This document shows positions 22,009 through 51,877 of a stretch of DNA of 64,000 nt, one piece after another. Numbering within the stretch: the stretch's first letter is position 1; every line of letters begins with the position of its first letter. Source of the DNA: an uncultured Actinomycetes bacterium (GTDB taxonomy: Bacteria; Actinomycetota; UBA4738; HRBIN12). Below the pieces are notes generated by a model. That model made no database searches, was not told the origin of the DNA, and saw only the letters and a list, made by a program, of their open reading frames with translations. The DNA is taken from positions 1,433,478 through 1,497,477 of the forward strand of contig CAVRAV010000001.1 in the NCBI GenBank assembly GCA_963719165.1, written 5' to 3'. The position numbers and the translations under genes were made by a program.

Positions 22009-22059
22009 AGGGACGCCATCGGCGCGTCCCCGGCGCAGCTGTAGGGGGTTTTCGTGTCC

Positions 22060-22293: not shown

Positions 22294-22362
22294 CTGCCGC
22301 TCCCTCTTTCGGCTGGCTACGCTCGCCAGGTCGTGCCCCGGGTCGCCGGCATCCTCGGCGGC

Positions 22363-22899
22363 CTAGCTCTTCGCCTTCCCGCTCAAGATGTCTTTGACCC
22401 TGTCGAAGAAGCCCCCCGTCGCGTCCTTGGCCTTGTCGGTCGCCGGACCAACCGCGTCCTTCGCTTTGAGCGCGGCGTCGCCCGTGGCGCCGAGCGCCTT
22501 GCTCGCGAGACCGCCCGCCGTGTCCACGGCCTTGCTCGTGATCGGGGCCGCCTTGTCCACCAGGCCGCTCGCCGTTCCCTTCGCCTTCTCAACCACGGGC
22601 GCGGCCTTGTCGGCCAAGGTTCCCGCCGCGTCCTTGGCCTTGTCGGCCGCGCTCTGTGCGCCGTCCCCCGTCTTGTCGGTCGCCGCTTGGGCGGCGTCGT
22701 TCGCCTTGTCGGCCGCGCCCTGGGCCGCATCCTTCGCCTTGTCCGCCGCGCCCTGGGTCGCATCGGCGGCCTTGTCGGCCGCGCCCTGGGCGGCGTCCTT
22801 CGCCTTGTCCGCCGCGCCCTGGGTCGCATCGGCGGCCTTGTCCGCCGCGCCCTGGGCGGCGTCCTTCGCCTTGTCGGCGGCGCTCTGTTCGTCGCTCAT
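22363..22899 (-). CDS. LEA-like 11-mer repeat protein (Ala/Lys/Asp amphipathic repeats)
   Basis: Repeats AADKAKDAAQG / AADKAADATQG. The ATG at 22899 (MSDEQSAADKAKD) is chosen over the track start at 22959. Confidence 0.65.
   Translation of the reverse strand: MSDEQSAADKAKDAAQGAADKAADATQGAADKAKDAAQGAADKAADATQGAADKAKDAAQGAADKANDAAQAATDKTGDGAQSAADKAKDAAGTLADKAAPVVEKAKGTASGLVDKAAPITSKAVDTAGGLASKALGATGDAALKAKDAVGPATDKAKDATGGFFDRVKDILSGKAKS
22684..22881 (-). repeat. three near-identical tandem 66-bp coding repeats (22-aa unit) inside the LEA-like gene
   Basis: Visible directly as a repeated GCCTTGTCCGCCGCGCCCTGGGTCGCATCGGCGGCCTTGTCGGCCGCGCCCTGGGCGGCGTCCTTC block. Confidence 0.7.
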
Positions 22900-23068
22900 C
22901 GTTGCTCCTTCACGAGTCGTGGGACCCCCCATCGTTCCGGGACCGGTGGATAACGGCAAACCTGCAGGTCAGGAGGCTAGTTCGAGGGCTCCGAGAGCGC
23001 GGGGATCGAGTGGTTCGCCGAGATGCGCGAAGTTGTCCGCTTATGATCGTTCTGCAACACTTCCGCGC

Positions 23069-24383
23069 ATGGCCAAGGTCACCATCATCGGCGCCGGCAG
23101 CGTCGAGTTCACCCGCAACATCGTGGCGGATCTCGCCTCCTACGAGGAACTGCACGGGACCCTGGAGATCGCGCTTCACGACATCGACGAGGAACGACTC
23201 GCCACGGCCGAACGAGCGGCACGACGTCTCGTCGAGCAGGTGGGCGCCGGGTACGACGTGGCGGCGTTCTTCGACCGTCGCGCCGCCTTCGACGGCGCCG
23301 ACTACCTGATCAACGAGATCCAGGTGGGCGGCTTCGCGGCGACCCTGACAGACTTCGAGGTGCCCAAGACCTACGGCGTGCGGCAGACGATCGCGGACAC
23401 CATCGGGATCGGCGGCATCATGCGCGGGCTCCGGACCATCCCGGTGATGGCGGCGATGGCCGACGACATGGCGGCGCTCTGCCCGCACGGCCTCCTGCTC
23501 AACTACACCAACCCCATGGCGATGGTCCCGTGGGGGATCTGGGCGGGATCGGCGTTCCCCGCCGAGCGCACGATCGGCGTCTGCCACAGCGTGCGCGACA
23601 CGCATCGGTTCCTGGCCGAGACGGTGGGCGTCGCCGAGGAGGATATCTCGTTCATCACCGCAGGCTTCAACCACCAGTGCTTCGTGTACCGGTTCGAAGA
23701 TCGCCACACGGGCGAGGATCTCTACCCCCGCCTGCGGGCGAAGATCGACGCGGACCGAAGAGGGGCTCGGCCGTCGCGTTCGCGTTGAGTTGTTCCGGCG
23801 GTTCGGCTTCTTCCCGACCGAATCCTCCGAGCACTCCGCGGAATACGTCCCATGGCTCCTGCACCACGACGACCAGGTGACGCACTTCCGCAGCGAGATC
23901 GACGAGTACCTGCGACGCAGCGAGGAGAACCTCCGCGAGTTCGACGAGCTTCGAGCCAAGCTCGATACGGGCGAGGAGCTTGAGATCGAGCTCAACAGCG
24001 AGCTTGCGTCCGAGATCGTGCGCGCCGTGGAGTCGGGAGTCGCGCGCGAGGTCTACGGGAACGTGCGCAACGCCGGCCTGATCGAAGGCCTCCCGGAGGA
24101 CGCGTGCGTCGAGGTCCCGTGCGTCGCCGGCAAGAACGGCGTTCTCCCCACCCGCGTGGGGCGTCTGCCGCTCCAGACGCTCGCACTCAACCGCACCTTC
24201 TTGAACGTGGTGGAGCTCACGGTGCACGCGGCGCTGGAACAGCGCCGCGACCTCGTCTACGCCGCCGCGCTCCTGGATCCGAACACGGCGGCGACCCTTG
24301 CCTCGGGCCAGATCGTGGCGATGTGCGACGACCTGATCGCGGCCCACGGCGACCTCATGCCCGAGGGCATCGCCAAGGGCTAG
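23069..24383 (+). pseudogene. glycoside hydrolase family 4 (NAD/Mn-dependent alpha-glucosidase/alpha-galactosidase-like) with an apparent -1/+2 frameshift near 23753-23760
   Basis: N-part MAKVTIIGAGSVEFTRNI...CHSV (23069-23788) and C-part FRRFGFFPTESSEHSAEYVPW... (TTG at 23790 to 24383) are both clearly GH4 but in different frames. Reading the C frame upstream gives ...EEGLGRRVRVELFRRFGFF, so the junction is at gacgcggaccgaagagggg. Confidence 0.6.
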
Positions 24384-25252
24384 CGATCCGCCGCGGCCCG
24401 TTCGCGGATACCGGCGAGGCCCGACGCGACGAACCGATCCTCTCCCGTGTCGAGGCCGTGAGCGACCTCGTGCCAGGGCATGAACAGGAACGAGAAGTGC
24501 GCCCTGCCGTGGAAGCCCGCATCGGGCGGCCCGCCGTACGCGGCGAGGGCGCGTTCCCCGGCGCCGGGGCGCGCGCCGAGGAACCAGGCGAAGTCCCAAG
24601 CGGGATCCCCGATCCCGGCCTCCTCCCAGTCGATCACGCCCGCGAGATCGCCCGACGGGCTCACGAGCACGTGCTCGGGGCCGAGGTCGCCGTGCGTCAC
24701 GCACGTCGCGAAGCGCCAGAGGGCGTCGTCGCCGAGGTAGGCGGCGAAGCTGCTCGCGAACGACGAACGTTCGTCCGGGCGCAGCAACGGGAAGACCCGC
24801 TCGCGCATCATCGCCAGCTCTGCGCGCCGCTCTTCGCGCAGGACCTCCGCCGGCCTGGCGCGCAGCCCCAGGTATTCGGGAGGAACCAGGTGGAGGTCGT
24901 AGAGGAACCGACCCAGCCGTTCGGGCCAGACCCCTTCCTCGCCCGCGTCGGCGACCGAACGTCCTTCGAGCTTGCGGTACCCCATGACCACCGGATCGAG
25001 CGACACGAGCTCGGGTTCGGGCACCGTGCCGCTCACCTCCGCCGCGATCTCCGGGAGCATGTCGATCTGCCCGCGCAGCGTCGCTTCGGCCGCCTCCCCC
25101 AGCGGGAACTGCAGGATCCAAACGTCGTTGACCTCGTACGTGGAGCAGGTCCAGCCCTCGCCGACCGGCGAGAAGGTCGCGATCCTCCCGAGCTCGGGGA
25201 ACCGAGCCTCCGCGAACGCCCGGTGCTCGGCAACGCGCGCCGCCTCGCTCAT
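24380..25252 (-). CDS. phosphotransferase enzyme family protein (APH/choline-kinase-like small-molecule kinase)
   Basis: HGDLGPEHVLV and IDWEEAGIGDPAWDFA (Brenner and DFG-like) motifs. The ATG at 25252 overlaps the upstream MFS stop (ATGA). Confidence 0.75.
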   Translation of the reverse strand: MSEAARVAEHRAFAEARFPELGRIATFSPVGEGWTCSTYEVNDVWILQFPLGEAAEATLRGQIDMLPEIAAEVSGTVPEPELVSLDPVVMGYRKLEGRSVADAGEEGVWPERLGRFLYDLHLVPPEYLGLRARPAEVLREERRAELAMMRERVFPLLRPDERSSFASSFAAYLGDDALWRFATCVTHGDLGPEHVLVSPSGDLAGVIDWEEAGIGDPAWDFAWFLGARPGAGERALAAYGGPPDAGFHGRAHFSFLFMPWHEVAHGLDTGEDRFVASGLAGIRERAAADR

Positions 25253-26490
25253 CCGAGCGGCTCCGGCGGCGAGAACGAGGGATCGGCCGGGACGTCGTCG
25301 GCGCCGGGGCGATCGAGCTCGGGGACGGCGAGCGCGAACCAGGCGACCGCGGCCCCGGCCAGCGCGAGCGCCGAGGCCCCCGTGTACAAGACCACGGGAC
25401 CCGCGTGTTGGTACACGAAGCCGCCGACCCCGGCGCCGAGGATGGGGCCGAGCCCGAACCCTACCGCCTGAGCGATGGAGTTCCCGGTCGAGTAGAGCGA
25501 GGACGGCAGGAGCCGGCCCACCACCACCACGCCGGTCGTGAACAGGAGGCTGAAGGCCAGCCCCTCGAAGACCGACAGCAGCGAGACGATGGTGGGGTCG
25601 TCGATGAGCCCCCATAAGAGGAAGCCCGTCGCGTAGACCAAGGCGCCGAGCACGTAGACCTTGCGCAGGCCGAAGCGTGCGTGCAGCCGGGAGCTGTAAC
25701 GCATCGTCGGGACCTCGATGAGGCCGCCGGCCGCGGTGCCGATCCCCACGAGCAGCGGGCCGCCGCCCTCGCTCACGATCTTGAGCGCGATGAAGTTCCA
25801 CGCGGCGTTGAAGCCGGTCCACACGAGGAACAGCGCCGCGAGGTACCCCCACAGCCGCGGCGCCGCGCGGAAGGCCGCGCCCACGGCGCCGAGCCGCCCG
25901 TCGCCCGAGCTCACGTGACGCGGGAGGTCCCGGCGCACGGTGAAGGACCACGCGAGCACCACGGCGCTCGACATCGAGAAGAACGGCATCGCCCAGCTCA
26001 CTCCCCACGCGCGCAGCAACGCGCCGAACGCGAGGCAGCCGACCGCATAGCTCAGGCTCTCCCAGGCTCGGATGCGGCCGTAGTCCGACATGCGCGCGTC
26101 GCCGAGGTGCTCGAGGGCGATGGCGTCCACGTTGGGTCCGAACGTCACCATGCTCCCGGCCAGCAGGAAGCCCACCACCGCCACCGACATCACGCCGTGG
26201 GCCGTCGTCATGACGAGCGAGAACAGGCACGCCCCCGCCACACCGATCTGCAACGTGGTCCTGCGGCCGAGGGTGGCGTCCGCGAGTTGTCCCCACAGGG
26301 GGTTCAGCAATACCCGCGCGAGCGCCATCGCCGCGATGACGAGGCCGATGTCGCTCCCGCTCAGGCCCTTGCTCTGATCGAGGTAGAGCGCGAGGAACGG
26401 GAAGAACGCGGCGATCACGAACCCCGACGTCAGGAAGAGGCCCTGCACCGCCACCGAGGGCGACGGGCGACGGTCTACGCGCCCACTCAC
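25249..26490 (-). CDS. MFS transporter
   Basis: 12 predicted TM segments. The proposed GTG at 26490 overlaps the amidohydrolase stop (GTGA). The track ORF extends further, to 26823. Confidence 0.8.
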   Translation of the reverse strand: MSGRVDRRPSPSVAVQGLFLTSGFVIAAFFPFLALYLDQSKGLSGSDIGLVIAAMALARVLLNPLWGQLADATLGRRTTLQIGVAGACLFSLVMTTAHGVMSVAVVGFLLAGSMVTFGPNVDAIALEHLGDARMSDYGRIRAWESLSYAVGCLAFGALLRAWGVSWAMPFFSMSSAVVLAWSFTVRRDLPRHVSSGDGRLGAVGAAFRAAPRLWGYLAALFLVWTGFNAAWNFIALKIVSEGGGPLLVGIGTAAGGLIEVPTMRYSSRLHARFGLRKVYVLGALVYATGFLLWGLIDDPTIVSLLSVFEGLAFSLLFTTGVVVVGRLLPSSLYSTGNSIAQAVGFGLGPILGAGVGGFVYQHAGPVVLYTGASALALAGAAVAWFALAVPELDRPGADDVPADPSFSPPEPLG

Positions 26491-27566
26491 CGGCCGAGCC
26501 CCGGCACCAGCCGGAGCGCGTTCTCCGCGTAAACCTTCCGCAGTACTTCGGCAGGCAGGTCGAGTCCCGAGATCGCCCATCGGCCCTGAGGCGGGACGTC
26601 GTCGGACGCGTACGCGAAGTGTTCGTCGTCGGTCTCGAGGAAGCGGAAATGCGTGATGTAGGTCTCCCGGTCCGGGGGGGATGCGTCCGTGCCGAACAGG
26701 ATACGGTCGGGGTGGCGCTCGAAGAGCCGACGAGCGGCGCGCGGCTGGCGACCGAGCTCCGCGATGCGCGCGGCGATGTCGACGTGAAAGTTGGGGTGGG
26801 CGTCGAGCATGCGCGCGACCCACGCCAGATCCTCCACGTACCCGCCGACATGTGCGCCGATGAACGTGGTGCGGGGGTGGCGCGCCACGAGGGATCCCAG
26901 CGCATCCACGATCGTCCGGAACGCCGGGAACCGGCTGCGGTCACCGAACCACCAGTCGGGATGCTCCGCGAGTTCCTCGAGGCGCTCGTTCGTCTCGTCG
27001 AGCGGCTGGAAGAACGCCGCCGGGTCGCCCACGTGGATCAAGACCGGTACCTCGGCCTCGGCCGCCGCGAGCCATAGGGGGTCGAGACGCTCGTCGTCGG
27101 GCATCACCAGAGCGCCGGCCTCATCGCGCACATGCAGGCCGAGGATCTTCCACACTTTCATCCCTCGGGCGCCGCGGTCGACGGCCTCGTGGAGCTGTGC
27201 GGCCATCCGCGACGCGAACGCGCCGCCGCGCGCAGGCTCGTCCCAATCCACCTGGCAGAAGGTGACGAACCGCCCGGGGTGAGCCCGGTCGTACCGCGCG
27301 AGGTTCGCCTCCAGTTCCCCGGCGCGGCCGTCCAGATTCACGATGCTCCGAACGCCGCAGGCGTCCATCAGCTCGACGAGGGCCCCCACGTCGGGCGCGC
27401 CCCAGCCCTCGCTCAGCCACCGTCCGAGGTGGTTGTGCGCGTCCACGACCGGGAACGCCGCCCGCTTCACGCCGTGCGTCGGGAGCTGGAGCGTTGAGCG
27501 CGGGCGATAGTCCCGCAGCGGGAGGTCGCGCAGCCGCTGCGGGAATGACGGGTCGTCGCGATCCAT
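26487..27566 (-). CDS. amidohydrolase family protein (TIM-barrel metal-dependent hydrolase, amidohydrolase-2-like)
   Basis: PVVDAHNHLG metal-binding start, then HVGD and the distal D/H residues. Confidence 0.8.
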   Translation of the reverse strand: MDRDDPSFPQRLRDLPLRDYRPRSTLQLPTHGVKRAAFPVVDAHNHLGRWLSEGWGAPDVGALVELMDACGVRSIVNLDGRAGELEANLARYDRAHPGRFVTFCQVDWDEPARGGAFASRMAAQLHEAVDRGARGMKVWKILGLHVRDEAGALVMPDDERLDPLWLAAAEAEVPVLIHVGDPAAFFQPLDETNERLEELAEHPDWWFGDRSRFPAFRTIVDALGSLVARHPRTTFIGAHVGGYVEDLAWVARMLDAHPNFHVDIAARIAELGRQPRAARRLFERHPDRILFGTDASPPDRETYITHFRFLETDDEHFAYASDDVPPQGRWAISGLDLPAEVLRKVYAENALRLVPGLGR

Positions 27567-27577
27567 CGACGCGGCCC

Positions 27578-28354
27578 TCAGACCGTGGAGACCTCGACCC
27601 CGGCATCGCGCAGGCCGGCCACGCCGCTCGGGTCGGCATCCACGTCGGTGATCAATTCGTGCACGCGGTCGACCCCGCAGATCTGTGCGAACGCCACCCT
27701 GCCGATCTTGGACGAATCCGCCACGACGACCACGCGGCGCGCGCGCTCGATCAGGGCGAGATCGGTGTGCGCCTCCACCTCGTGGTGGGTCGTGAGCCCG
27801 GCCCCGGCGGAGATGCCATCGGTCCCGAGGAAGACCACGTCGAGGTTCAGGCCGGCGAGGGATCGCTCGGCGAGCGGCCCGACGAGCTCATAGGACTCCG
27901 GCCGAGCGTAGCCGCCCGTCACCACGAGTTTCAGGTTCGGCCTGATCGCCAGCTCGCTTGCGATGTTCAGCGCGTTCGTGACCACCGTGAGCCGCTCACG
28001 GTCGATCACGGCGCGCGCGACCTCGGTGGTGGTGGTACCGCCCGTGAGACCGATGGCTCCCCCGTCGGCGACCAGGCGGGCGGCGGCCGACGCGATGCGG
28101 CGCTTCTCGTCTTGGTGCCGCGCGGACTTGTAGCGGAGGGGAAGTTCGTACAGCACGCCCTGGGCGACCGCGCCACCGTGCGTGCGCGCCAAGAGCTTCT
28201 GCTGCTCCAACAGCTCGAGGTCCCGGCGGACGGTGGCCGCGCTCACGCACAGCGTGGCCACGAGCTCCGTGACCCCTACCGTGCCGTCGGCGGAGAGTTC
28301 CTCGAGGATCGCGCTCAGCCGCTCGGCCTGTCGCATGCGCAGGAGTATAGGCAT
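27578..28354 (-). CDS. DeoR/GlpR family transcriptional regulator
   Basis: N-terminal HTH (RLSAILEELSADGTVGVTELVATLCVSAATVRRDL) plus a DeoR C-terminal sugar-phosphate sensor domain. Confidence 0.85.
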   Translation of the reverse strand: MPILLRMRQAERLSAILEELSADGTVGVTELVATLCVSAATVRRDLELLEQQKLLARTHGGAVAQGVLYELPLRYKSARHQDEKRRIASAAARLVADGGAIGLTGGTTTTEVARAVIDRERLTVVTNALNIASELAIRPNLKLVVTGGYARPESYELVGPLAERSLAGLNLDVVFLGTDGISAGAGLTTHHEVEAHTDLALIERARRVVVVADSSKIGRVAFAQICGVDRVHELITDVDADPSGVAGLRDAGVEVSTV

Positions 28355-28464
28355 GCGTGATCGTTCTGGGTTGCGTGGATGCTCGTTCTTGCTCTATCGT
28401 GCGCATTTCCGAGCGTAATCGCGCGAAGGAGCGGTGGGAACCACATGCGAGCGAACGGGACCGA
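28355..28464. promoter_or_regulatory. divergent deoR/SIS promoter region with two copies of a GATCGTTCT-type motif (candidate DeoR operators)
   Basis: GTGATCGTTCTGG at 28366-28378 and GATGCTCGTTCTTG at 28388-28401. The identical 11-mer TGATCGTTCTG recurs at 23044-23054, just upstream of the GH4 start. Confidence 0.4.
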
Positions 28465-29334
28465 ATGAACGACATCGAGCGGGAGATCGCGAGCCAGCCG
28501 TCGAGCTGGACGCGCGCCGCATCGATCACATCGGCCTCGCTGCCCGCTCGGGGAGAACGCGTCATCGCGGCGGGCTGCGGCACGTCGTTGTTCATGGCCC
28601 AGGCGTACGCGGGGCTGCGCGAGTCGCGCGGCCTGGGCGAGACGGATGCGGTTGCGGCCTCGGAGTTTCACACGGGACGCACCTACGATCGCGCGGTGCT
28701 CATCTCGCGCAGCGGCACCACCACCGAGATGGCGAGGCTCGCCGAGGACCTGCGCGGGAACACGCCCACGGTGGCGCTCTGCGCGGTGTCCGATGCCCCG
28801 GTCCCCGAGGCGTCCGCCGAGTTCATCTCCCTGGCGTTCGCGGACGAGCGCTCCGTCGTTCAGACGCGCTTCGCGACCACCGCGCTCGCCCTGCTGCGGG
28901 CGCACCTGGGCGAGGACCTCGGGCCGGCCGTCGCGGACGCCGAGCGAGCCCTCGCGGCGCCGCTCCCCGTCGACGTCGACGGGCTCGATCACTTCGTGTT
29001 CCTGGGGCACGGATGGACGAACGGACTCGCCAACGAGGCTGCGCTGAAGCTCCGAGAGGCGGCCCAGGCGCACACGGAGTCCTACCCGGCCATGGAGTAC
29101 CGACACGGTCCCATCAGCCTCGTGGGATCCCACAGCCTGGTGTGGCTCCTCGGCACGCCCGACCCGACGGTGGCCGCCGACGTGCGCGCCGCCGGGGCCT
29201 CGGTGCGCGAGGCCGAGCTCGATCCCATGGCCGAACTCATCCTGATCCAACGCGTGGCGGTGGCGCTGGCCGCGGCCCGCGGGCTCGACCCGGACCATCC
29301 TCGCAACCTGACCCGATCGGTGGTGCTCTCGTGA
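28465..29334 (+). CDS. double-SIS domain sugar-phosphate isomerase/deaminase/deglycase (AgaS / FrlB / GlmS-C-like)
   Basis: IAAGCGTSLFMAQ...LISRSGTTTE (first SIS) and FVFLGHGWTNGLANEAALKLRE (second SIS). The ATG at 28465 is internal to the track ORF. Confidence 0.8.
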   Translation: MNDIEREIASQPSSWTRAASITSASLPARGERVIAAGCGTSLFMAQAYAGLRESRGLGETDAVAASEFHTGRTYDRAVLISRSGTTTEMARLAEDLRGNTPTVALCAVSDAPVPEASAEFISLAFADERSVVQTRFATTALALLRAHLGEDLGPAVADAERALAAPLPVDVDGLDHFVFLGHGWTNGLANEAALKLREAAQAHTESYPAMEYRHGPISLVGSHSLVWLLGTPDPTVAADVRAAGASVREAELDPMAELILIQRVAVALAAARGLDPDHPRNLTRSVVLS

Positions 29335-29360
29335 CCGCCCCGAAGACCTGGAGGTTCTCG

Positions 29361-30686
29361 ATGAAGCGCACGGTGTTCGCCCTCTTCGCAACGTTCGCGG
29401 TGCTCGCGGCGGCATGCACGAGCGGGGGCTCCGACCAGCCGTCAGGCGGCGCTTCGGCGGGTCCCACCGAGATCACGTTGTGGCACGGGTACGGCATCGC
29501 CGGCAAGCCTTTGCCCGGCGGCGTCGTGAACTACGAGGCCAAGTCGATGGACGACCTGATCACGGAGTTCAACTCGACGCATCCGGACATCAAGGTGAAC
29601 AACGTCTACTGCTGCACCAACGACAAGGCGCTCGACAAGCTCACCGTGGCGCTCCAGGGCGGCCAGCAGCCGGACATCACCTACCAGTACGGGACTTCGC
29701 TCCCGCAGATCGCGAACGCCCCCAACGTCATGGACCTCACCGACCGCGTCACCGACCCCGCCTTCGGATGGGACGACTTCTTCCCCGGCGCCCGGGAATC
29801 CTCCACGGTGGACGGTCGTGTGCTCGGCGTCCCGGCCCTCATCGACGACCTCGCCATCGTCTACAACAAGAAGCTCTTCGCGGACGCGGGCATCGCCGAG
29901 CCGACGGTGGACTGGACCTGGGACGACTTCCGAGCGGCCGCGAAGGCGCTCACCGACCCGGCCCAGAAGCGGTTCGGCTGGGCGTTCCCGATCGATGCGT
30001 CGGAGGACACCACGTGGCACTTCGACGCCATGTTGTGGGAGGCCGGAGGGGACATCCTCAACGCGGACAACACGCAGGCGGTCTTCAACCAGGCGCCCGG
30101 CGTGACCGCCCTCGCGATGCTGCGCGACATGGCGGTCACGGACAAGAGCGTGTACCTCGACCCGCAGAACACCGGCAAGATCGACGACCTCTTCAACACC
30201 GGGTCGATCGGCATGCTCGTCACGGGGCCGTGGGCGCTCTCGGCCTATCCCGACGTCAACTACGGCGTGCAGATCATGCCCTCGTTCCCGGGTGGGAACC
30301 ACCAAACGATCAGCGGCCCGGACATGTGGGTGCTCTTCGACAACGGGCAGCAGCGCGCGGATGCGTCCTGGGAGTTCATCAGCTGGTTGACCCAGAAGCA
30401 GCAGATCCAACAGGACGCCATGACGTCGGGTCACCTGCCCACCAAGGCCTCTGTGCTGAAGATCCCCGGCTTCACCAAGGCGTTCAACGACAAGTACCCC
30501 GGCAACGGCTTGTTCGCGGAGAACCTGAACAACGTACTGAAGGCGCGACCCGTGCTGGCCTCCTACGACCAGATCTCCCGTGCCATGGCGGACGCGGTCG
30601 TCTCCGTGCTGATCGACGACAAGGATCCCCAACAGGCGCTGAACGACGCGGCTCAACAGGTGAACGACATCCTGGCTTCGTCCTAG
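29361..30686 (+). CDS. ABC transporter substrate-binding lipoprotein (family-1 sugar-binding)
   Basis: Lipobox LAAACTSGG. Typical carbohydrate SBP length and motifs. Confidence 0.85.
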   Translation: MKRTVFALFATFAVLAAACTSGGSDQPSGGASAGPTEITLWHGYGIAGKPLPGGVVNYEAKSMDDLITEFNSTHPDIKVNNVYCCTNDKALDKLTVALQGGQQPDITYQYGTSLPQIANAPNVMDLTDRVTDPAFGWDDFFPGARESSTVDGRVLGVPALIDDLAIVYNKKLFADAGIAEPTVDWTWDDFRAAAKALTDPAQKRFGWAFPIDASEDTTWHFDAMLWEAGGDILNADNTQAVFNQAPGVTALAMLRDMAVTDKSVYLDPQNTGKIDDLFNTGSIGMLVTGPWALSAYPDVNYGVQIMPSFPGGNHQTISGPDMWVLFDNGQQRADASWEFISWLTQKQQIQQDAMTSGHLPTKASVLKIPGFTKAFNDKYPGNGLFAENLNNVLKARPVLASYDQISRAMADAVVSVLIDDKDPQQALNDAAQQVNDILASS

Positions 30687-30713
30687 GCGGGTCGGCGGAG
30701 GAAGGAGCGGACG

Positions 30714-31613
30714 ATCGGGACCTTCCGGCGGTTCCTGGCGTCCGACCACGCGGCGGGATGGGCGTTCATCCTGCCGTCGGTCGTGTTGATCTTGCTGTTC
30801 GCCCTGTTCCCGATCGGCTGGGGATTCGTGCTGTCGTTCCAGAAGGCCTCGCTGCTGAACCCCGTGCGCCCATTCGTGGGCACGGAGAACTACCAGAAGC
30901 TGTTCACGGACCCCTTCGTCAAGAAGGCCGTGACGAACACGCTGATCTACACGGCGCTGTTCGTCCCGAGCTCGCTGATCCTCGCGCTCGGCGTGGCCTC
31001 CGCCCTGAACCGCAGGATCCGGTTCATCCGCTTCTACCGCCTCGCCGTGTTCGTGCCCGTGGTCGCGTCGACGATCGCCACCGGGATCATGTTCCTGTGG
31101 CTCTTGGACAAGGACTTCGGCCTCGCGAACTGGGCGCTCGGCAAGGTCGGCCTCGGACCGTTCGGGTTCTTCTCCTCGCCGTCACAGGCGCTGCCCTCGC
31201 TCGTCGTGATGACGGTGTGGGGTTGGCTGGGGTTCGACACGATCGTGTACCTCGCGGCGCTCCAGGGCGTCCCTGCCGAGCTCTTGGAGGCCGCGGCCAT
31301 CGACGGAGCGGGCCGCTGGAGCACGTTTCGCAACGTGACGCTCCCGCTGCTCGGGCCGGCCTCGCTCCTGCTCATCGTGTGGTCGACGATCTCCGCGCTC
31401 CAGCTGTTCGACGAGGTGTATTTCGTGACCAAAGGGGGGCCGCTGCACGCGACCGACGTCGTCGTGTACCGGATCTTCATCATGGCCTTCCAGAGCGGAC
31501 TGCCGCTCGCCGGACGAGGTGCGGCGCTCGCGTACCTGCTGTTCGTGGCCATCTTCGTGCTCACGCTGGGCCAGTTCTGGATGGGCAACCGGGTGGTGCA
31601 CTACCAGGCATGA
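30714..31613 (+). CDS. ABC transporter permease (MalF/UgpA-type)
   Basis: EAAxIDGA permease signature. The frame is open from 30687 after a GGAGGAAGGAG Shine-Dalgarno. The first canonical start is GTG at 30783, but this would cut off the cytoplasmic N-tail and TM1, so the start is uncertain (ATC at 30714 or CTG). Confidence 0.75.
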   Translation: MGTFRRFLASDHAAGWAFILPSVVLILLFALFPIGWGFVLSFQKASLLNPVRPFVGTENYQKLFTDPFVKKAVTNTLIYTALFVPSSLILALGVASALNRRIRFIRFYRLAVFVPVVASTIATGIMFLWLLDKDFGLANWALGKVGLGPFGFFSSPSQALPSLVVMTVWGWLGFDTIVYLAALQGVPAELLEAAAIDGAGRWSTFRNVTLPLLGPASLLLIVWSTISALQLFDEVYFVTKGGPLHATDVVVYRIFIMAFQSGLPLAGRGAALAYLLFVAIFVLTLGQFWMGNRVVHYQA

Positions 31614-32494
31614 GCGCCACGGCGATCGATCCACGCACCCTCCCCGGCGAGACCGGGATGGTGGAGCCGCGTCGCCTCGCGTGGCTCCCGTTCAGCCCGT
31701 GGCACCTCCTGCTGTTCCCCATGGCGTTGGTGATGCTCGTGCCCCTCGTGTGGATGGTGGTGACGTCCCTGGAGACCCTGAGCCAGACGCGCCACTTCCC
31801 GCCGATCCTGTGGCCGGGCTCGTTCCAGTGGTCGAACTACCCGGCCGCGCTGCGCTCCGCTCCGTTCGGCAGGTGGTTCTGGAACACCACCGTCGTGACG
31901 TGCGTGGTGGTTGCGAGCAACTTGCTGCTGTGCTCACTGGCCGCCTACGCCTTCGCGCGCATGGAGTTCCTCGGCAAGAAGGTCGTGTACTTCCTGCTGC
32001 TGGCCACGCTGATGGTACCCCTGCAGGTGATCTTGATCCCGACGTTCCTGATCGTGAAGCAACTCGGCCTGGTCAACCACCTCGGGGCGCTGATCGTGCC
32101 GAACCTCGCGAACGTCTTCGGCATCTTCATGCTCACGCAGTTCTTCCGGACCCTTCCCATCGAGCTAGAGGAGGCCGCGCGGATCGACGGCGCCGGGCGG
32201 CTCAAGATCTTCTTCACCATCGTGGTGCCGTTGTCCACCGCGGCGCTCGCGACGCTCGCCGTGATCCAGTTCATGTGGACCTGGAACGACTTCCTGTGGC
32301 CGCTCGTGACGATCTTCAATGAGCAGGCCTACACGCTGCAGCTCGGGTTGCAGAGCTTCCAGGGGTCGCACACCACCGAGTGGAACCTGCTGATGGCCGG
32401 CAACGTGATGAGCATGATCCCGATGCTCGTGCTCTTCGTGGCGGCGCAACGTTGGTTCGTGCGCGGGATCGCGACCCAGGGCCTGAAGGGATGA
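31610..32494 (+). CDS. ABC transporter permease (MalG/UgpE-type)
   Basis: EAARIDGAGRLKIF signature. The ATG overlaps the upstream stop (ATGA). Confidence 0.85.
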   Translation: MSATAIDPRTLPGETGMVEPRRLAWLPFSPWHLLLFPMALVMLVPLVWMVVTSLETLSQTRHFPPILWPGSFQWSNYPAALRSAPFGRWFWNTTVVTCVVVASNLLLCSLAAYAFARMEFLGKKVVYFLLLATLMVPLQVILIPTFLIVKQLGLVNHLGALIVPNLANVFGIFMLTQFFRTLPIELEEAARIDGAGRLKIFFTIVVPLSTAALATLAVIQFMWTWNDFLWPLVTIFNEQAYTLQLGLQSFQGSHTTEWNLLMAGNVMSMIPMLVLFVAAQRWFVRGIATQGLKG

Positions 32495-32524
32495 CGCGCC
32501 GATGAGGACGCGAGGGACGGCGCC

Positions 32525-33649
32525 GTGGCGAACGTAGCGTTCGAGCACGTGAACAAGGTCTATCCCGGACCCACCGTGGCCGTGGAGGACCTCACGCTCG
32601 AGGTCGGCGATGGGGAGTTCCTGATCCTGGTCGGACCCTCAGGCTGCGGCAAGTCCACGGCACTCCGCATGGTCGCCGGCTTGGAGAAGATCTCGAGTGG
32701 AACCGTCTACGTAGACGGCCGCTCGATCAACGACGTGCCCCCCAAAGACCGCGACATCGCGATGGTGTTCCAGAACTACGCCCTCTACCCGCACATGACG
32801 GTGGAGCGGAACCTCGCTTTCGGACTGCGGCAGCGTAAGACCCCGCGCGCCGAGGTCGCTCGACGGGTCGGCGAGGTGAGCGCCACACTCGGGCTCGAGG
32901 AGTTGATGAAGCGCCGGCCCGGCCAGCTCTCGGGTGGGCAGCGCCAGCGTGTCGCGATGGGCCGAGCCCTCGTGCGCGAGCCGAAAGCGTTCCTGCTCGA
33001 CGAACCATTGTCCAACCTCGACGCGAAGCTCCGGGTTCAGATGCGGGCCGAGCTGAAGAAGCTGCACCACCGGCTGGGCATCACCACGATCTACGTCACG
33101 CACGATCAGGTCGAGGCGATGACCCTCGGCGAGCGCATCGCGGTCATGAGCGCGGGACGGTTGCAGCAGATCGGCGTTCCCCAAGACGTCTACGACCGGC
33201 CGGGCAACGTGTTCGTAGCGGGCTTCATCGGCTCCCCTCCGATGAACCTGTTCCAGGGTGCGGCGACCGAGGGCGTCGTGCAGGTGGGGTCGTTCGCGTT
33301 CGAGCGTTCAGGCGTGCGGGACGGCCCGGTCACCGTGGGCGTGCGGCCGGAGGCCTTCCACCCGGCCGCCGCAGACGCCGACGGGCGACCGCGGATCGAG
33401 GCGCTGATCGATGTCGTGGAACCCCTGGGCGACGAGGTCCTGGTGCACGGGACCGTCGATGCTCGTGCGGCGCAGAGCGGCGCCGAGGAGGAGGACGCGA
33501 TGCTGCTCGCCGACACCGGCACCCGGGCTGCGGTGACGGTGCGGCTGGATCCGGGCATGCGACCCGAGCCGGGGGACCGCATGCCGCTCGTGGCCGAGCC
33601 CTCCGCCATCCACCTCTTCGATGTGGAACACGGCGATCGCCTGGGCTGA
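32525..33649 (+). CDS. ABC transporter ATP-binding protein (MalK/MsiK-like)
   Basis: GPSGCGKST Walker A, LSGGQRQRVA signature, and a TOBE C-domain. Confidence 0.9.
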   Translation: MANVAFEHVNKVYPGPTVAVEDLTLEVGDGEFLILVGPSGCGKSTALRMVAGLEKISSGTVYVDGRSINDVPPKDRDIAMVFQNYALYPHMTVERNLAFGLRQRKTPRAEVARRVGEVSATLGLEELMKRRPGQLSGGQRQRVAMGRALVREPKAFLLDEPLSNLDAKLRVQMRAELKKLHHRLGITTIYVTHDQVEAMTLGERIAVMSAGRLQQIGVPQDVYDRPGNVFVAGFIGSPPMNLFQGAATEGVVQVGSFAFERSGVRDGPVTVGVRPEAFHPAAADADGRPRIEALIDVVEPLGDEVLVHGTVDARAAQSGAEEEDAMLLADTGTRAAVTVRLDPGMRPEPGDRMPLVAEPSAIHLFDVEHGDRLG

Positions 33650-33657
33650 TCGTCGCG

Positions 33658-34161
33658 CTAGAGGTCAAGGTACATGCTCAGGGTGAGGACATCGGATCCC
33701 TCCCGGAGCGGCTCGCGATCGTCCTCGTCGAGGGTGAACCCGGCCGATCCGTAGAGGCGACGCGCCGCCGTGTTCCCCTCGGCGATGCGAAGGACCACGC
33801 GCGATGCGCCGCGTTCACGCGCCCAGCCCACCACCGCCTCGACGAGGGCGCGGCCGAGACCGTTCCCCCTCGCCCGGGGTGCCACCCACATCGCGAAGAG
33901 GTTCGCCGCGAGCGGGTCCTCCCCGAAGATCGCGCCGGTGGCGAGGCCGGTGAACGCCGCGTCCGGAACGGGCTCGATCACGAACGTCACGAGGTCCGCT
34001 CCCCACCCCTCCCCCGTGGCCCAGCCTTCCCACCGCCATCGCGGCTGCCCTTCGGTGGCCTCGAGCGTGGACGCGAACGCGTCGGGTGCGTCGCGCAGGG
34101 CGGACAGACGGACGTCCCGCAATCGCTCCCAATCCTGCGGGAGGGCCGCGCGCAGCGTCAC
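33658..34161 (-). CDS. GNAT family N-acetyltransferase
   Basis: VAPRARGNGLGRALV acetyl-CoA motif. The GTG at 34161 overlaps the upstream stop (GTGA). Confidence 0.7.
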   Translation of the reverse strand: MTLRAALPQDWERLRDVRLSALRDAPDAFASTLEATEGQPRWRWEGWATGEGWGADLVTFVIEPVPDAAFTGLATGAIFGEDPLAANLFAMWVAPRARGNGLGRALVEAVVGWARERGASRVVLRIAEGNTAARRLYGSAGFTLDEDDREPLREGSDVLTLSMYLDL

Positions 34162-35153
34162 GAGATGACCCGGACCTCGGCCCGTGCGGCCAGGGCCTCG
34201 GCGCGACCCCGATCCAGACGCCCGGCACCCGGTACCTCGGCGTTCGCGGTAGCGGCCCCCAGCGCGAGCCTGAGCGCACGTGCCCAATCGGCGTCGAGTC
34301 CGGCGGCGAGTCCGGCGGCGAGTCCGGCGTCGAGTCCGGCGGCGAGCCCGGCGTCGAGTCCGACGGCGAGCCCGGCGAGGAAGGCGTCGCCGCTTCCCAC
34401 CGGGTAGCGTCCTCGCACGTAGAGCGTTCCCTCGAAGAGCGTTCCGTCGGGAGTGATGACGACGACGCCGTCCGCCCCGCGCGTGACGATGCCGGCATGG
34501 CCCTCGCCGCCCGCGAGGGCGCGCAACTTCTGCGCCGCCGCGAGCGCGTCGTCGCGGTGCGCGGTGGGAACACCGAGCAACTCGCTCGCTTCGGCGGCGT
34601 TCACCTTCACGACGTCCGGCTCGGCCTCGAGGGCAAGGCGGAGCCGGTCGCCCTCCGAGTCGAGCGCCACCCGCACGCCTGCGGCGCGGGCCTCGGCGAC
34701 AACCGAGCGGTACCCGTCGCCCGGGGTGCCCCGCGGCGTCGATCCGCTGATCGTGAGCCATCCGCCGGGAACCCATGCGTTCGCGGCGGCGTCGACGAGC
34801 TCCACCCACGCGGCCTCCGGAACCTCCGACCCATGCTCGTAGAACTCCGTGAGCCCTCCCGTCTCCCGATCTGCCACGCTCAGCGACGACCGGTTCTCGC
34901 CATGGGTCCACACGCACTCGCACGGGACCCCTTCTGCGCTCAACATGTCCGTGAGCCACTGGCCCGTGTGCCCACGCATCAGGGCGACCGCCCGGACCTC
35001 GGCACCCAAGGCGCTCGCGGCCCGCGCCACGTTCAGCCCCTTGCCGCCCGCGACATCCACGAAGCCCGTCGGACGGTGGATGGCTCCGCGCACCAACCGG
35101 TCGATCTCGAACAGCTTGTCGACCGACGGGTTCGCCGCGAGGCAGACGATCAC
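34158..35153 (-). CDS. 1-phosphofructokinase family hexose-phosphate kinase (FruK/LacC/tagatose-6-P kinase-like, PfkB superfamily)
   Basis: N-terminal IVCLAANPSVDKLFEIDRLVRGAIHR and C-terminal GSGDAF. The ATG overlaps the upstream stop (ATGA). Confidence 0.8.
   Translation of the reverse strand: MIVCLAANPSVDKLFEIDRLVRGAIHRPTGFVDVAGGKGLNVARAASALGAEVRAVALMRGHTGQWLTDMLSAEGVPCECVWTHGENRSSLSVADRETGGLTEFYEHGSEVPEAAWVELVDAAANAWVPGGWLTISGSTPRGTPGDGYRSVVAEARAAGVRVALDSEGDRLRLALEAEPDVVKVNAAEASELLGVPTAHRDDALAAAQKLRALAGGEGHAGIVTRGADGVVVITPDGTLFEGTLYVRGRYPVGSGDAFLAGLAVGLDAGLAAGLDAGLAAGLAAGLDADWARALRLALGAATANAEVPGAGRLDRGRAEALAARAEVRVIS
34291..34378 (-). repeat. in-frame tandem 12-nt coding repeat (GAGTCCGGCGGC/GAGTCCGGCGTC, ~7 units) encoding (AGLD/AGLA)n in the kinase
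   Basis: Visible directly. The protein reads GLAVGLDAGLAAGLDAGLAAGLAAGLDAD. Confidence 0.7.
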
Positions 35154-36088: not shown

Positions 36089-36175
36089 GTTCCGAGCCTA
36101 CCCGCGAGATCCGTTCAGCGGCAGAGGCAGACGGGCATGGATCATGCGTTGGGCATCCGTCGCTACCATCGACGG

Positions 36176-48446: not shown

Positions 48447-51206
48447 TCAGCCACCGTCGTTCACCGCCACGAGGCTGCCGGCTGCCTCCCGTTTTCGCGA
48501 CCGGGCCAACCGGACGGTCTTGTCGATCCAGACGATCCCCGGAGCGATCAACGACAGCAGCAACACGGTGCCCCATTGCTTCCCCGAGAGCGATACCGTG
48601 TCGAGCAAGCGTTGGAGCATGCCCAGCTCGACGGCCGCCCACGTGAGCGCCCACCCCAGGATGATCCACCCGAAGTACGGGAAGATCGGTGACGACCACA
48701 CGGGCTCCCGCTCCCTCCGCATCACCACCCCGAAGTTCACCGCGCTCATGGCCACGATGGCGAAGGCCATCGTCATCGATATCGAGGGGAGCGTGGTGCT
48801 CGGCTCGTCGGGCCCCCACTCGAGCACCGCGAGCGCACTGGCCGCGACCGCGAAGCCACTGATCGCCCATCGCACGATCTGTGGGCCGGTGACGATCTTC
48901 GTCCCGGGCCTGCGTGGTGGTCGCTGCATGACGCTGGGATCGGGGACGTCGGCGATGAACCCGATCACGACGGTGACGACGACGAAGAACTTGCAGAACA
49001 ACAGCTGCATCGGGAACAGCGCGACGCCGCCGTTGATGTTGAGGATCGTGGCGAGCAGCATCAGCTGCAGCACCGACGAGAGGATCGTGAGCTGCAGTTT
49101 CACGTACGACGTGATCCGCCGGTAGATGTCCCGGCCCAGGTCGATCGCCTTGACGAGCGTGGCGAAGTTGTCGTCGGTGAGCACGATCTTCGCGGCTTGC
49201 TGCGTCACCTCCGAGCCGCTCCCCATCGCCACGCCGATGTCCGCCTGCTTGAGGGCCGCGGCGTCGTTCACGGCGTCCCCGGTCATCGCGACCACGTTGC
49301 CCGCCTCCTGCATCAGGCGAGCGAGCCGGACCTTATCCTCGGGGGCCACTCGCCCGAAGACGTGGAGCTCCGGGAGGCGCTCGACGACCTCGGCGTCCGG
49401 GAGGTGCGACAGGTCGGTCCCCGTGATCACGCCGGGCCCGAGACCGAGCTGATCGGCGATCGCGCGCGCCGTGACCGTGTGGTCGCCCGTGATCATCCGG
49501 ACGTCGACGCCGGCGCTCAGGGCGATCCGCACCGCATCCTTGGCCTCCGCGCGGAGGGGGTCGATGATCCCGACCAGCGCGACCAGGACCAGGTCCGAGA
49601 CGGCTTCCATCGGGTCGTCGATCGCCGCCGTCATCGCCGAGTCGTCGAGGTCGCGGGCGGCGAACGCGAGCACACGCAGCCCCCGCTCCGAGAGCTGCTG
49701 GTTCGCGGCAAGGATCTCGTCGCGGACCTCGTCGATCGGGGTCGTCTCCCCGTGCCAGAGCGCCCGGTCGCACCGCTCGATGACGACGTCGGGCGCGCCC
49801 TTGACGCTCATGAAGTGTGGGTGCTGGATGATTCCGCTCACGAGATGCTCCGGGACGTCGTGGAGCGTGGCCATGAACTTGTATCGGGAATCGAACGGCA
49901 CCTCCGCGCGGCGCGGGATCGTCCGCCGCGTCTCCTCCGCGTCGACCCCGGTCTTGGCGGCGAGCACCACGAGGGCGGCCTCCGTGGGGTCGCCGATGAT
50001 CGATCCGTCGTCCGCCACGGTCGCGTCCGTGCACAGGCACAGGCCGAGCGACAGTCGCCGGAAGTCCGGCGATGGCTGGCCTCCCGCTGCGAGGACCGCA
50101 CCCGTCTTCTGGTAGCCGCCGCCCTCGATCGTGTACCAGTCGCCCCCGGTGAGCATCGAGGTGGCCGTCATCGCGTTCATCGTGAGCGTCCCGGTCTTGT
50201 CGCTGTTGATGACGGTCGTGCCGCCGAGCGTCTCGACGTCGGTCAGCGTCTTGACGACCGCCTTCGACTCGGCCAGGCGTTGCGCACCCGACGACAGCAT
50301 CGCCTGCACGAACGTGGGGAGTCCGACCGGGATCGATGCGATCGCGGTCGAGATGCACAGCAGCAGCAGGGTGTCTCGATCCTGGCCCCGCGCGATGCCC
50401 ACGATCGCGATCACCGCCACGGCCGACCAGGCGAGGACGCCGAAGACCTTGGTCAGTCCGTCCAGCTCCCGCTGGAGCGGGGAGCGTGAGCGCTTCGTCG
50501 CGCTGACCATGTCCGCGATGCGGCCCATCTGCGTCGACTGTCCGGTCGCCGTGACGATGGTGGAGGCGGAGCCGCGGGTGACCTGCGTGTTCTGGAACAC
50601 CATGTCCGTGCGGTCGCCGAGGGCGACGTCGTCGCCGGCGATCGGGGTCGTGTCCTTGGGCACGGGTGCGCTCTCCCCGGTGAGGGCCGCTTCCTGGACC
50701 TCGACCGTCGCCGCGGAGACGAGCCGCCCGTCGGCCGGAACCAGATCACCAGCCTCGAGCAGCACGACGTCGCCCGGCACGAGCTCCCGGGAGTCGATCT
50801 CCTCGGTGCCGGCCGATCGCCGGACGCGGGCGTGAGGCACCTGGAGCTGCGAGAGTGCCTCGACGCTGGCTCGGGCCTTCAGCTCCTGGCTCGACCCCAT
50901 GATGACGTTGAACGACACGAGACCGAGCACGAAGAGCCCGGTGGCCACCTGACCGATCACGAAGCTGGCCACGGCGACGATCAACAACATGATGTTCATG
51001 GGGTTCGAGAGCTGCCCGCGCGCCACTGCCCAGACGCTCGGCGCCGGCTCCGTCGGCAGCTCGTTGGGCCCGTACGTGGCGCGTCGTCGCGCGACCTCCT
51101 CGGCGTTCAGCCCTCGTTCGGGATCCGTCACCAACCGTGTGGCTACCTCGGCTGCCGAAAGGGCATGCCAAGGGATGCGTTCCGACGCTTCCTCGGTCCT
51201 GCTCAT
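48447..51206 (-). CDS. cation-transporting P-type ATPase (P2-type, Ca2+/Mg2+-ATPase-like)
   Basis: DKTGTLT phosphorylation site, TGDAVNDAAALKQADIGVAMG hinge, 10 TM. 919 aa. Confidence 0.95.
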   Translation of the reverse strand: MSRTEEASERIPWHALSAAEVATRLVTDPERGLNAEEVARRRATYGPNELPTEPAPSVWAVARGQLSNPMNIMLLIVAVASFVIGQVATGLFVLGLVSFNVIMGSSQELKARASVEALSQLQVPHARVRRSAGTEEIDSRELVPGDVVLLEAGDLVPADGRLVSAATVEVQEAALTGESAPVPKDTTPIAGDDVALGDRTDMVFQNTQVTRGSASTIVTATGQSTQMGRIADMVSATKRSRSPLQRELDGLTKVFGVLAWSAVAVIAIVGIARGQDRDTLLLLCISTAIASIPVGLPTFVQAMLSSGAQRLAESKAVVKTLTDVETLGGTTVINSDKTGTLTMNAMTATSMLTGGDWYTIEGGGYQKTGAVLAAGGQPSPDFRRLSLGLCLCTDATVADDGSIIGDPTEAALVVLAAKTGVDAEETRRTIPRRAEVPFDSRYKFMATLHDVPEHLVSGIIQHPHFMSVKGAPDVVIERCDRALWHGETTPIDEVRDEILAANQQLSERGLRVLAFAARDLDDSAMTAAIDDPMEAVSDLVLVALVGIIDPLRAEAKDAVRIALSAGVDVRMITGDHTVTARAIADQLGLGPGVITGTDLSHLPDAEVVERLPELHVFGRVAPEDKVRLARLMQEAGNVVAMTGDAVNDAAALKQADIGVAMGSGSEVTQQAAKIVLTDDNFATLVKAIDLGRDIYRRITSYVKLQLTILSSVLQLMLLATILNINGGVALFPMQLLFCKFFVVVTVVIGFIADVPDPSVMQRPPRRPGTKIVTGPQIVRWAISGFAVAASALAVLEWGPDEPSTTLPSISMTMAFAIVAMSAVNFGVVMRREREPVWSSPIFPYFGWIILGWALTWAAVELGMLQRLLDTVSLSGKQWGTVLLLSLIAPGIVWIDKTVRLARSRKREAAGSLVAVNDGG

Positions 51207-51451
51207 CTCTCTGTCCTCCGTGCGGATCGGTCGACGAGTTCATCCTCACGCGGCCTGGGTACATCTGTCCGGGTGAGGTACTCGTAGCGACGCTTGACGA
51301 ACAAGCCCTGGTCCATCCGTCGGGAACGTATCGAGTCTGCCCACGCCACCGCAAACGGAGCCGAAGCGCATTCACGGCGCTGGTGCTCCTCGCGTTCGCG
51401 ATTGGGCGCGGCATAGAGTGGCAACGTCGTTTCAAGGGAAGGGAGGTACCC

Positions 51452-51877
51452 ATGAACGTTCAGGATGGGATCGGAAGCGCGCCTGGGGTGGATGCGGGCC
51501 GTCGACCGTTCGGCCAGCTCGTGGCATCGGTCGTCGGCGGGTTCGGCACCCTCGCACGCCAGCACCTCGATCTGGCCAAGATCGAGGCTGCGGAGGCCGC
51601 AGCGGTCCGAGGCAAGGGTGCCGGGATGATGGCGGGGGCGGCGGTCGCCGCGATGTACGCGGTCGGTTTCATCGCCGCCGCAGGGGCGGCCGCGCTCGCC
51701 TTGGTGTTGCCGGTGTGGGCGGCCATCCTGATCGTGGCCGCCGTAATGCTCGTCGTCGCGTGGGTGCTCGTGATGCTCGGGCGTCGCACGATCAAGTCAG
51801 CTCCCGCGCCGAGCGAGCGAACCCAGGAAAGCCTGAAGGAGGACATTCGATGGCTGAAGCAGCAGATCAAAAGGTGA
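51452..51877 (+). CDS. Holin-X / phage holin family protein (DUF1469-like, actinobacterial)
   Basis: LARQHLDLAKIEAAEAAAVRGKGAGMMAGAAVAAMYAVGFIAAAGAAALALVLPVWAAILIVAAVMLVVAWVLVMLGRR, then SLKEDIRWLKQQ. This matches the Holin-X architecture: amphipathic helix, two TM, coiled C-terminus. Confidence 0.7.
   Translation: MNVQDGIGSAPGVDAGRRPFGQLVASVVGGFGTLARQHLDLAKIEAAEAAAVRGKGAGMMAGAAVAAMYAVGFIAAAGAAALALVLPVWAAILIVAAVMLVVAWVLVMLGRRTIKSAPAPSERTQESLKEDIRWLKQQIKR

Follow-up and report, generated by a model that had tools for sequence, protein, structure and literature searches.

A box shared by two promoter regions of a sugar-utilization locus

The window analyzed here is a 64,000-nt stretch (contig CAVRAV010000001.1 of assembly GCA_963719165.1, positions 1,433,478 to 1,497,477 of the forward strand) from an uncultured Actinomycetes bacterium, and its GC content is about 70%. 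In this window, deoR, which encodes a DeoR/GlpR-family regulator, stands divergent from a SIS-domain gene that heads an ABC sugar transporter operon, and an alpha-galactosidase-like GH4 gene (23069-24383) lies nearby. The subject of this study is a short sequence box found in the deoR/SIS intergenic region and in the GH4 promoter region, a candidate operator of the adjacent DeoR protein.

The initial annotation had pointed to an identical 11-mer upstream of these genes. The exact 11-mer TGATCGTTCTG is indeed present in two copies in the window, both on the plus strand. One lies at 23044-23054, as annotated, and ends 14 nt before the GH4 start codon (ATG at 23069); the other lies at 28358-28368, its earlier coordinates (28368-28378) having been 10 nt too high. 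Likewise, the copy described as degenerate, GCTCGTTCT, exists at 28381-28389 instead of 28393-28401, a shift of 12 nt, while the position of the third sequence, GATCCGTTCAG at 36108-36118, was correct.

In shuffles, with the pattern treated as pre-specified, a second exact copy of the 11-mer is expected 0.01 times in 64 kb. A scan of the window allowing one mismatch returned the same two matches only and was uninformative, since 21 of 100 shuffles also reached two. The 7-mer TCGTTCT was found seven times against 5.6 expected and is not enriched window-wide; three of its seven copies are in the deoR/SIS and GH4 promoters. A recent duplication or a mobile element as the source of the two 11-mers was rejected, as their flanks share nothing. 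Because the pattern was chosen after looking at the window, and because shared 11-mers are by our own estimate common between GC-rich stretches, the window by itself is only suggestive of a shared operator. The motif signal became significant only once orthologous loci were added, and with 80 DeoR loci and seven metagenomic GH4 promoters taken together the evidence is strong.

The box is conserved and enriched in orthologous loci

Scanning one genome per species, we obtained 80 loci with DeoR orthologs (64-83% identity), all from metagenome-assembled genomes of uncultured Actinomycetota. About 10 kb on each side of deoR was covered per genome, 1.37 Mb of loci in total. Gene order is strongly conserved: SIS-ABC is divergent from deoR-amidohydrolase-MFS-APH, GH4 is nearby, and on the far side of the transporter come PfkB1-PfkB2. 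In 58 of the 80 loci, SIS and deoR are adjacent and divergent. The genes of the window were called from codon-position GC and Pfam.

Unbiased searches recovered the box. Among the most frequent k-mers of 59 SIS-deoR intergenic regions, the deoR -10 sequence CCTATACT came first, followed by AACGAGCA, AACGCGCA, AACGATCA, AACGCTCA and AACGTGCA. Upon enumeration of gapped k-mers, AACGnnCA ranked first upstream of deoR (43/80; shuffle maximum, 22) and was among the top patterns upstream of GH4 (20/46; shuffle maximum, 17). The strict form, AACGNNCA/TGNNCGTT, reached a density of 14.6/kb in the 59 intergenic regions, about 37-fold the 0.39/kb of the loci as a whole (1.37 Mb); the window has 0.33/kb. 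Frequent occurrence elsewhere, which the initial annotation had named as an observation that would speak against an operator, was thus not what we found.

We then compared 100-nt upstream sets with composition-matched shuffles, using the pattern AACG[ACT][GT]CA and its complement. There were 64 sites upstream of deoR and 64 upstream of SIS, with 1.1 expected in each case, and 21 sites in 19 of 47 GH4 upstream regions, with 0.5 expected. No site was present in 19 PfkB1 upstream regions (0.24 expected), nor upstream of PfkB2, the amidohydrolase, MFS, the permeases, APH or the macro gene (0.1-0.4 expected each). Only deoR, SIS and GH4 thus had sites in front of them; elsewhere within ±10 kb of the 80 loci the motif stayed at chance level. 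The earlier extension of the motif to the kinase operon was not borne out by these data: GATCCGTTCAG aligns with the box only with an indel and scores below 6 bits by position weight matrix (PWM), and with the motif missing from all PfkB1 upstream regions this site was rejected.

The 68 operator instances read R-A-A-C-G-[A27 C29 T12]-[G47 T17]-C-A, or TG[AC][AGT]CGTTY on the other strand, and TGATCGTTC and TGCTCGTTC of the window both fit; the variant AACGTTCA was found in none of the 68. This asymmetric unit, RAACG[ACT][GT]CA, spans about 9-10 bp and is used singly, as a direct repeat or, in some lineages, as an inverted pair. A palindromic reading, TGAWCGWTCA, was rejected, as the two central variable positions are [ACT][GT] and not W/W. 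Only about 8-9 nt of the annotated 11-mer (TGNNCGTTY) belong to the motif, and its last 2-3 nt fall outside the conserved part.

The intergenic regions form 30 clusters at 75% identity, whose representatives are about 60% identical to one another. Of these 30, 20 have a strict match and 25 a match to the one-mismatch form, AWCGNNCA. An alignment of 17 sequences shows conserved islands at the SIS start and -10, at the box, at GCAA (the SIS -35) and at CCTATACT; within the box, the AACG..CA positions are invariant or almost invariant. Footprinting in relatives, as had been suggested at the outset, thus shows that the motif is kept in orthologous promoters. The motif is also present in rearranged loci in which SIS, the ATPase gene, deoR and GH4 are co-directional.

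Neighboring boxes of the same orientation have start spacings of 10 bp (nine cases), 22 bp (one case, in the window) or 33 bp (two cases), and therefore lie on one face of the helix.

Architecture of the deoR/SIS divergent promoter

The features of the locus are collected in Table 1. We placed the deoR start at ATG 28336 (MRQAER) because the N-termini of the DeoR orthologs all read M/V-R-Q-(A/S)-(E/D)-R, with all 58 orthologs beginning at this position. The ATG of the longest open reading frame (ORF), at 28354 (MPILLR…), is not conserved, and the "extra" codons between it and 28336 are the deoR -10 box CCTATACT. The deoR/SIS intergenic region is therefore 28337-28464.

Table 1. Coordinates of the boxes, predicted promoter elements and genes in the window
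Feature	Position	Strand	Remarks
Box A'	23034-23041	+	TGTCCGCT, differing from TGNNCGTT at one position; start 10 bp before that of box B'
Box B'	23044-23054 (core 23044-23051)	+	exact 11-mer TGATCGTTCTG, core TGATCGTT; core at -25..-18 from ATG
GH4 promoter -10 (predicted)	23056-23061	+	AACACT; 7 nt before ATG 23069
deoR promoter -10 (predicted)	28344-28349	-	TATACT; 7 nt before ATG 28336; CCTATACT conserved
Box B	28358-28368 (core 28358-28365)	+	exact 11-mer TGATCGTTCTG, core TGATCGTT; reads AACGATCA on the deoR strand
SIS promoter -35 (predicted)	28371-28376	+	TTGCGT; conserved GCAAY on the deoR strand; 18-nt spacer to -10
Box A	28380-28388 (core 28380-28387)	+	TGCTCGTTC, core TGCTCGTT; best conserved box
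SIS promoter -10 (predicted)	28395-28400	+	TATCGT; aligns with ortholog hexamers
GH4, first piece	23069-23788	+	Glyco_hydro_4 domain
GH4, second piece	23790-24383	+	Glyco_hydro_4C domain
APH-like kinase	24380 to ~25250	-	deoR unit
MFS transporter	25249 to ~26400	-	deoR unit
Amidohydrolase (Amidohydro_2)	26487-27566	-	deoR unit
deoR, DeoR/GlpR-family regulator	27578-28336	-	252 aa; HTH_DeoR + DeoRC; first gene of the deoR-amidohydrolase-MFS-APH unit
SIS-domain sugar-phosphate isomerase/deaminase-like gene	28465-29334	+	first gene of the ABC sugar transporter operon
ABC sugar transporter	substrate-binding protein ~29400-30686; two permeases to 32494; ATPase 32525-33649	+	SIS operon
GNAT	33658 to ~34150	-	
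PfkB2 (PfkB kinase)	34158-35153	-	
PfkB1 (PfkB kinase)	35150-36088	-	
Macro + rhodanese protein	~36140-37042	+	

Leaderless genes are established in actinobacteria, and on this basis we read conserved hexamers close to start codons as leaderless promoters. Orthologous genes were examined for a hexamer of the TAnnnT or NAnnnT type 6-8 nt before the start codon. It was present for deoR in 59 of 81 loci, for SIS in 60 of 76 and for GH4 in 44 of 47; the GH4 hexamers (NAnnnT, 6-7 nt before the start) were AACACT 21 times and CAGACT eight times. Operon-internal genes had it in 0/25 (amidohydrolase), 2/54 (ATPase), 0/44 (permease) and 0/24 (MFS) cases. Judging from these -10 hexamers, the deoR, SIS and GH4 units are probably transcribed as leaderless mRNAs in the relatives, and the deoR and GH4 transcripts of the window are probably leaderless as well.

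Box A lies in the spacer of the predicted SIS promoter, with 3 nt between it and the -35 and 7 nt between it and the -10. It has the orientation of box B, and the two starts are 22 bp apart. If the transcription start is placed as in the relatives, box A occupies about -29..-22 of this promoter. The initial annotation had ranked this copy as the degenerate one; the order has to be reversed, as the conserved box of the relatives aligns with TGCTCGTTC and the stretch carrying the exact 11-mer varies in length, the exact 11-mer copies themselves differing between lineages. The predicted SIS -35 may at the same time serve as a third, degenerate repeat, CACGCAAC.

Eight nucleotides separate box B from the deoR -10 downstream of it; counted from the deoR ATG, it occupies about -29..-22 of the putative leaderless promoter. 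In many orthologs, equivalent AACGNNCA boxes are found at -28..-40 from the deoR start. Second boxes comparable to box B include AACGAGCAtgAACGCGCA in L008 and L010 (L numbers are our labels for loci and contigs), similar tandems in L012-L015, L036 and L044, GTCGATCA in L002 and AACGTGCA in L019.

The SIS ATG lies 7-8 nt past the -10 in the relatives; in the window, ATG 28465 is preceded by about 57 additional nt. This stretch (28401-28464) contains GAAGGAG at 28425-28431 and an upstream ORF of seven codons (ATG 28445) whose TGA overlaps the SIS ATG (ATGA). It may represent a lineage-specific translational coupling.

Architecture of the GH4 promoter

In the GH4 promoter, boxes A' and B' together take in the predicted -35 and the spacer: box A' overlaps the -35 hexamer TTGTCC (23033-23038), and the trailing TG of the 11-mer (23053-23054) would be the extended -10 TG. 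At the position of box A', TGTGCGTT or TGCTCGTT is found in L003, L011, L081, L085, L087, L089, L092, L093 and L094. L093, the closest relative found and of metagenomic origin, has a GH4 85-87% identical to that of the window and the same TGATCGTTCTG at the same place. Its GH4 promoter reads TGTGCGTTtcTGATCGTTctgcaacact, in which TGTGCGTTtcTGATCGTTctg comprises both boxes 10 bp apart. Because L093 keeps both boxes while the sequence further upstream has diverged, we regard the GH4 site as real and as part of a two-box array.

Loci of the Gaiellales type carry a perfect box over the -35, cTTGATCGTTt or cTTGCTCGTTt, 14 nt before AACACT. When metagenomes were scanned with the GH4 promoter string, seven more GH4 promoters came up, all with the -35 box. 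Perfect GH4 boxes stand at -37/-47 in several lineages, and L025 has TGCGCGTT 10 bp upstream of the usual place. L012-L015, L044 and L065 have an inverted pair, AACGCGCA-N6-TGCGCGTT, at -66/-52 upstream of GH4, and L007, L009 and L010 have a single box at about -65. The operator architecture thus appears to shift between lineages, with an inverted pair in one clade and direct repeats in others. Similar inverted pairs were noticed at L051:1759-1781 and L065:14188-14209, beside unidentified genes.

A 20-nt string covering the GH4 promoter and start, CTGCGACACTTCCGCGCATG, was also found in 11 contigs of lower GC content (L082-L084, L086, L088, L090, L091, L095-L098), where it marks the beginning of ORFs of four unrelated types. 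For a collection as large as this one, we estimate that chance alone would give about as many.

The regulator and its predicted mode of action

The N-terminus of the DeoR protein matches HTH_DeoR (PF08220; E = 1e-15, residues 6-58), and its C-terminus matches the sugar-phosphate sensor DeoRC (PF00455; E = 1.9e-49, residues 74-231). Its sole sequence match in the PDB is 7l6l, a deoxyribose operon repressor. The top NCBIfam model is AgaR (NF040755) with 206.5 bits, almost level with GlpR_Halo at 196 bits; as the AgaR cutoff is 260, assignment to the AgaR equivalog was ruled out. Similarly, the SIS protein scored 34.9 bits against agaS_fam, for which the cutoff is 529.2, so that an AgaS-family isomerase/deaminase was ruled out; its resemblance is instead to GlmD, NagB-II and the C-terminal region of GlmS.

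The recognition helix of DeoR, VSAAT(V/I)RRD (residues ~31-38), is nearly invariant among loci that retain the core motif. A subclade formed by L055, L061, L072 and L078 has the helix VSEAT(V/A)RRD together with a diverged box 1 that the strict motif does not match; L055 and L061 have GATTCGAGCG there, and L072 and L078 carry other variants. These paired changes are suggestive of protein-DNA co-variation, though they are confounded by phylogeny.

DeoR-type regulators usually act on neighboring genes. Taking the enrichment, conservation, position and phasing of the boxes together, we consider it likely that they are operators of the adjacent DeoR/GlpR-family (AgaR-like) repressor. For the regulon operator proposed by the initial annotation, this means that the box shared by the deoR/SIS and GH4 promoters stands, the kinase site falls away, and the adjacent DeoR protein is still the most economical predicted binder. 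The boxes lie inside three predicted core promoters, the regulator's own included, an arrangement that would suit an autorepressor that blocks RNA polymerase; we thus favor repression over activation. In such a mechanism, oligomeric DeoR on the boxes would block RNA polymerase at the SIS/ABC, deoR and GH4 promoters. With its own promoter among those blocked, DeoR would repress its own synthesis, and a sugar phosphate from the pathway would act as effector and release the protein.

Several observations weigh against this interpretation. Five of the 30 intergenic clusters lack even a one-mismatch motif, and 28 of the 47 GH4 upstream regions have no AACG[ACT][GT]CA match; 17 of the 47 give no PWM hit of at least 6 bits. 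In the closest relatives, box B falls in a poorly aligned stretch of variable length. The regulation of GH4 in the window may be vestigial, the gene being frameshifted. Scans of both promoter regions for promoters and terminators found nothing with their E. coli-type consensus, and the promoters were placed by conserved hexamers instead. All loci were retrieved via DeoR, so the motif comparison covers only deoR-bearing genomes. Finally, we infer the link between protein and site through guilt by association.

Alternative explanations for the shared box

The boxes could be operators of a different transcription factor, for instance a global carbon regulator, with DeoR recognizing something else. 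The survey spans ±10 kb around deoR, a range in which a wider regulon would be invisible, and the association of DeoR with the box is itself a prediction. However, the box is in deoR's own promoter in most lineages, rearranged loci included, and occurs at chance level outside the three transcription units in 1.37 Mb. No other regulator gene was consistently linked to the locus among the 80 loci. The phased direct repeats also match DeoR-family architecture: motifs of this family have been described as imperfect direct repeats with a period of 10-11 bp, one of them validated by electrophoretic mobility shift assay (PMC3870299). We therefore regard another factor as unlikely.

It is less likely still that the shared sequence is a core promoter feature, such as a -35-like TTGNNC or a spacer element belonging to a particular sigma factor. 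The three promoters all look leaderless and share a common architecture, and many GH4 promoters have a TTGNNC hexamer, exactly 17 nt before the -10, that the box overlaps. A core element should nevertheless keep its place, whereas the position and orientation of the box relative to the -10 vary, both orientations being found between -18 and -66 from the start codon. In the SIS promoter the box sits in the spacer and reads TGNNCGTT in the direction of transcription, and in the deoR promoter it reads AACGNNCA. The inverted pair of the L007-L015 group, at -66/-52, is well upstream of the core promoter, other loci have 10-bp tandems, and leaderless PfkB1 promoters are without a box.

That the identical 11-mer is a functionless coincidence is very improbable: the post hoc choice of the pattern, the one-mismatch shuffles, the unenriched TCGTTCT and the non-conserved last 2-3 nt would all allow it, but the low expectation for a second exact copy and the same 11-mer at the same GH4 position in L093 argue against it. 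So does the core, which comes back in the orthologous promoters, in about 20-25 independent lineages and 40-60 times as often as shuffles predict; at about 60% identity between clusters, shared ancestry is an unlikely cause of this recurrence.

Comparison with known DeoR-type systems

Like E. coli AgaR, the regulator of the aga (N-acetylgalactosamine/galactosamine) regulon, the protein studied here is of the DeoR type and is predicted to act on neighboring operons, one of them led by a SIS gene (agaS in E. coli), and both systems have multiple operator copies in their promoter regions. Unlike in the aga regulon, transport here is by an ABC system and not by a phosphotransferase system (PTS), and the set adds GH4, Amidohydro_2, MFS and an APH-like kinase. 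The operator consensus that Ray and Larson gave in 2004 for E. coli AgaR is reportedly T-rich (…TTTCRTTTY…), unlike TGNNCGTTY. The E. coli protein controls its own gene and is a repressor of agaS and agaZ (PMC4694137).

The RhaR regulators, also of the DeoR family, were predicted by comparative genomics, with validation in Chloroflexus aurantiacus. They resemble our system in their imperfect direct repeats with a period of 10-11 bp, in the presence of sites in their own upstream regions and in their local sugar regulons, and the RhaR study likewise reached its conclusions by phylogenetic footprinting (PMC3870299). The likeness is one of architecture: the unit in Chloroflexus is TCGAAA, the pathway is that of rhamnose, and the lineages are other ones.

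SugR of Corynebacterium glutamicum has two sites in a divergent intergenic region, interferes with both promoters and is released by sugar phosphates, e.g., fructose-1-phosphate (PMC2222622). The present regulator shares with it the predicted role of an actinobacterial DeoR-type repressor and the two boxes in a divergent intergenic region. The SugR motif differs, being 21 bp, AC-rich and non-palindromic (ACAAAC…AACA), and SugR is pleiotropic and acts on distant PTS genes, whereas no PTS genes are present here.

The mechanism is most likely a standard local repressor-operator arrangement, and its value lies in annotation and not in new concepts. GH4, SIS, ABC, the amidohydrolase, MFS and the APH-like kinase could be annotated as one unit, apart from the neighboring PfkB kinases, and the gene cluster looks like an undescribed cluster for glycoside or amino-sugar utilization. 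It is possible, if rather doubtful, that the box marks a compact and widely conserved regulon for an undescribed glycoside/amino-sugar catabolic route in uncultured soil Actinomycetota, controlled by a DeoR repressor via phased 10-bp boxes in three leaderless promoters and with the PfkB kinases regulated separately; the host genomes are annotated as Gaiellales, Thermoleophilia or simply Actinomycetes. If so, the parts of the route would be GH4, the GlmD/NagB-II-like SIS protein, the ABC importer, Amidohydro_2, MFS and the APH-like kinase. Independently of that reading, the analysis provides a testable operator consensus, TG[AC][AGT]CGTTY with a phasing of about 10-11 bp, and a predicted three-promoter regulon for an uncharacterized DeoR regulator that is conserved in many uncultured soil actinobacterial lineages.

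Other features of the window

GH4 is frameshifted near 23760-23765, within …GACCGAAGAGGGGCTCGG…. In a tblastn search with the intact 438-aa GH4 of L003, the match changed from frame +2, which holds as far as 23764, to frame +3, which begins at 23760; the orthologs are single ORFs. The split may be either a pseudogene or an assembly error in the G run. Upstream of GH4 and divergent from it, a minus-strand ORF (22363-22900) encodes an Ala/Lys/Asp-rich protein with repeats such as AADKAKDAAQGAADKAADATQG.

No Rfam covariance model matched 22000-37000 at E ≤ 1, and hence no structured RNA element was recognized in this range.

Other matches to TGAACGTTC(A) in the window are at 19220-19228, 51453-51462 and 52982-52990. 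The first lies between two convergent gene ends. The second is a perfect palindrome, TGAACGTTCA, at a possible start codon (51452-51454) of ORF 51137..51877. The variant seen in these matches does not figure among the ortholog operators, and all three are probably unrelated to them. The region of about 51200-55200 has a lower GC content (0.66-0.68), a weak GC signal at the third codon position and many short overlapping ORFs.

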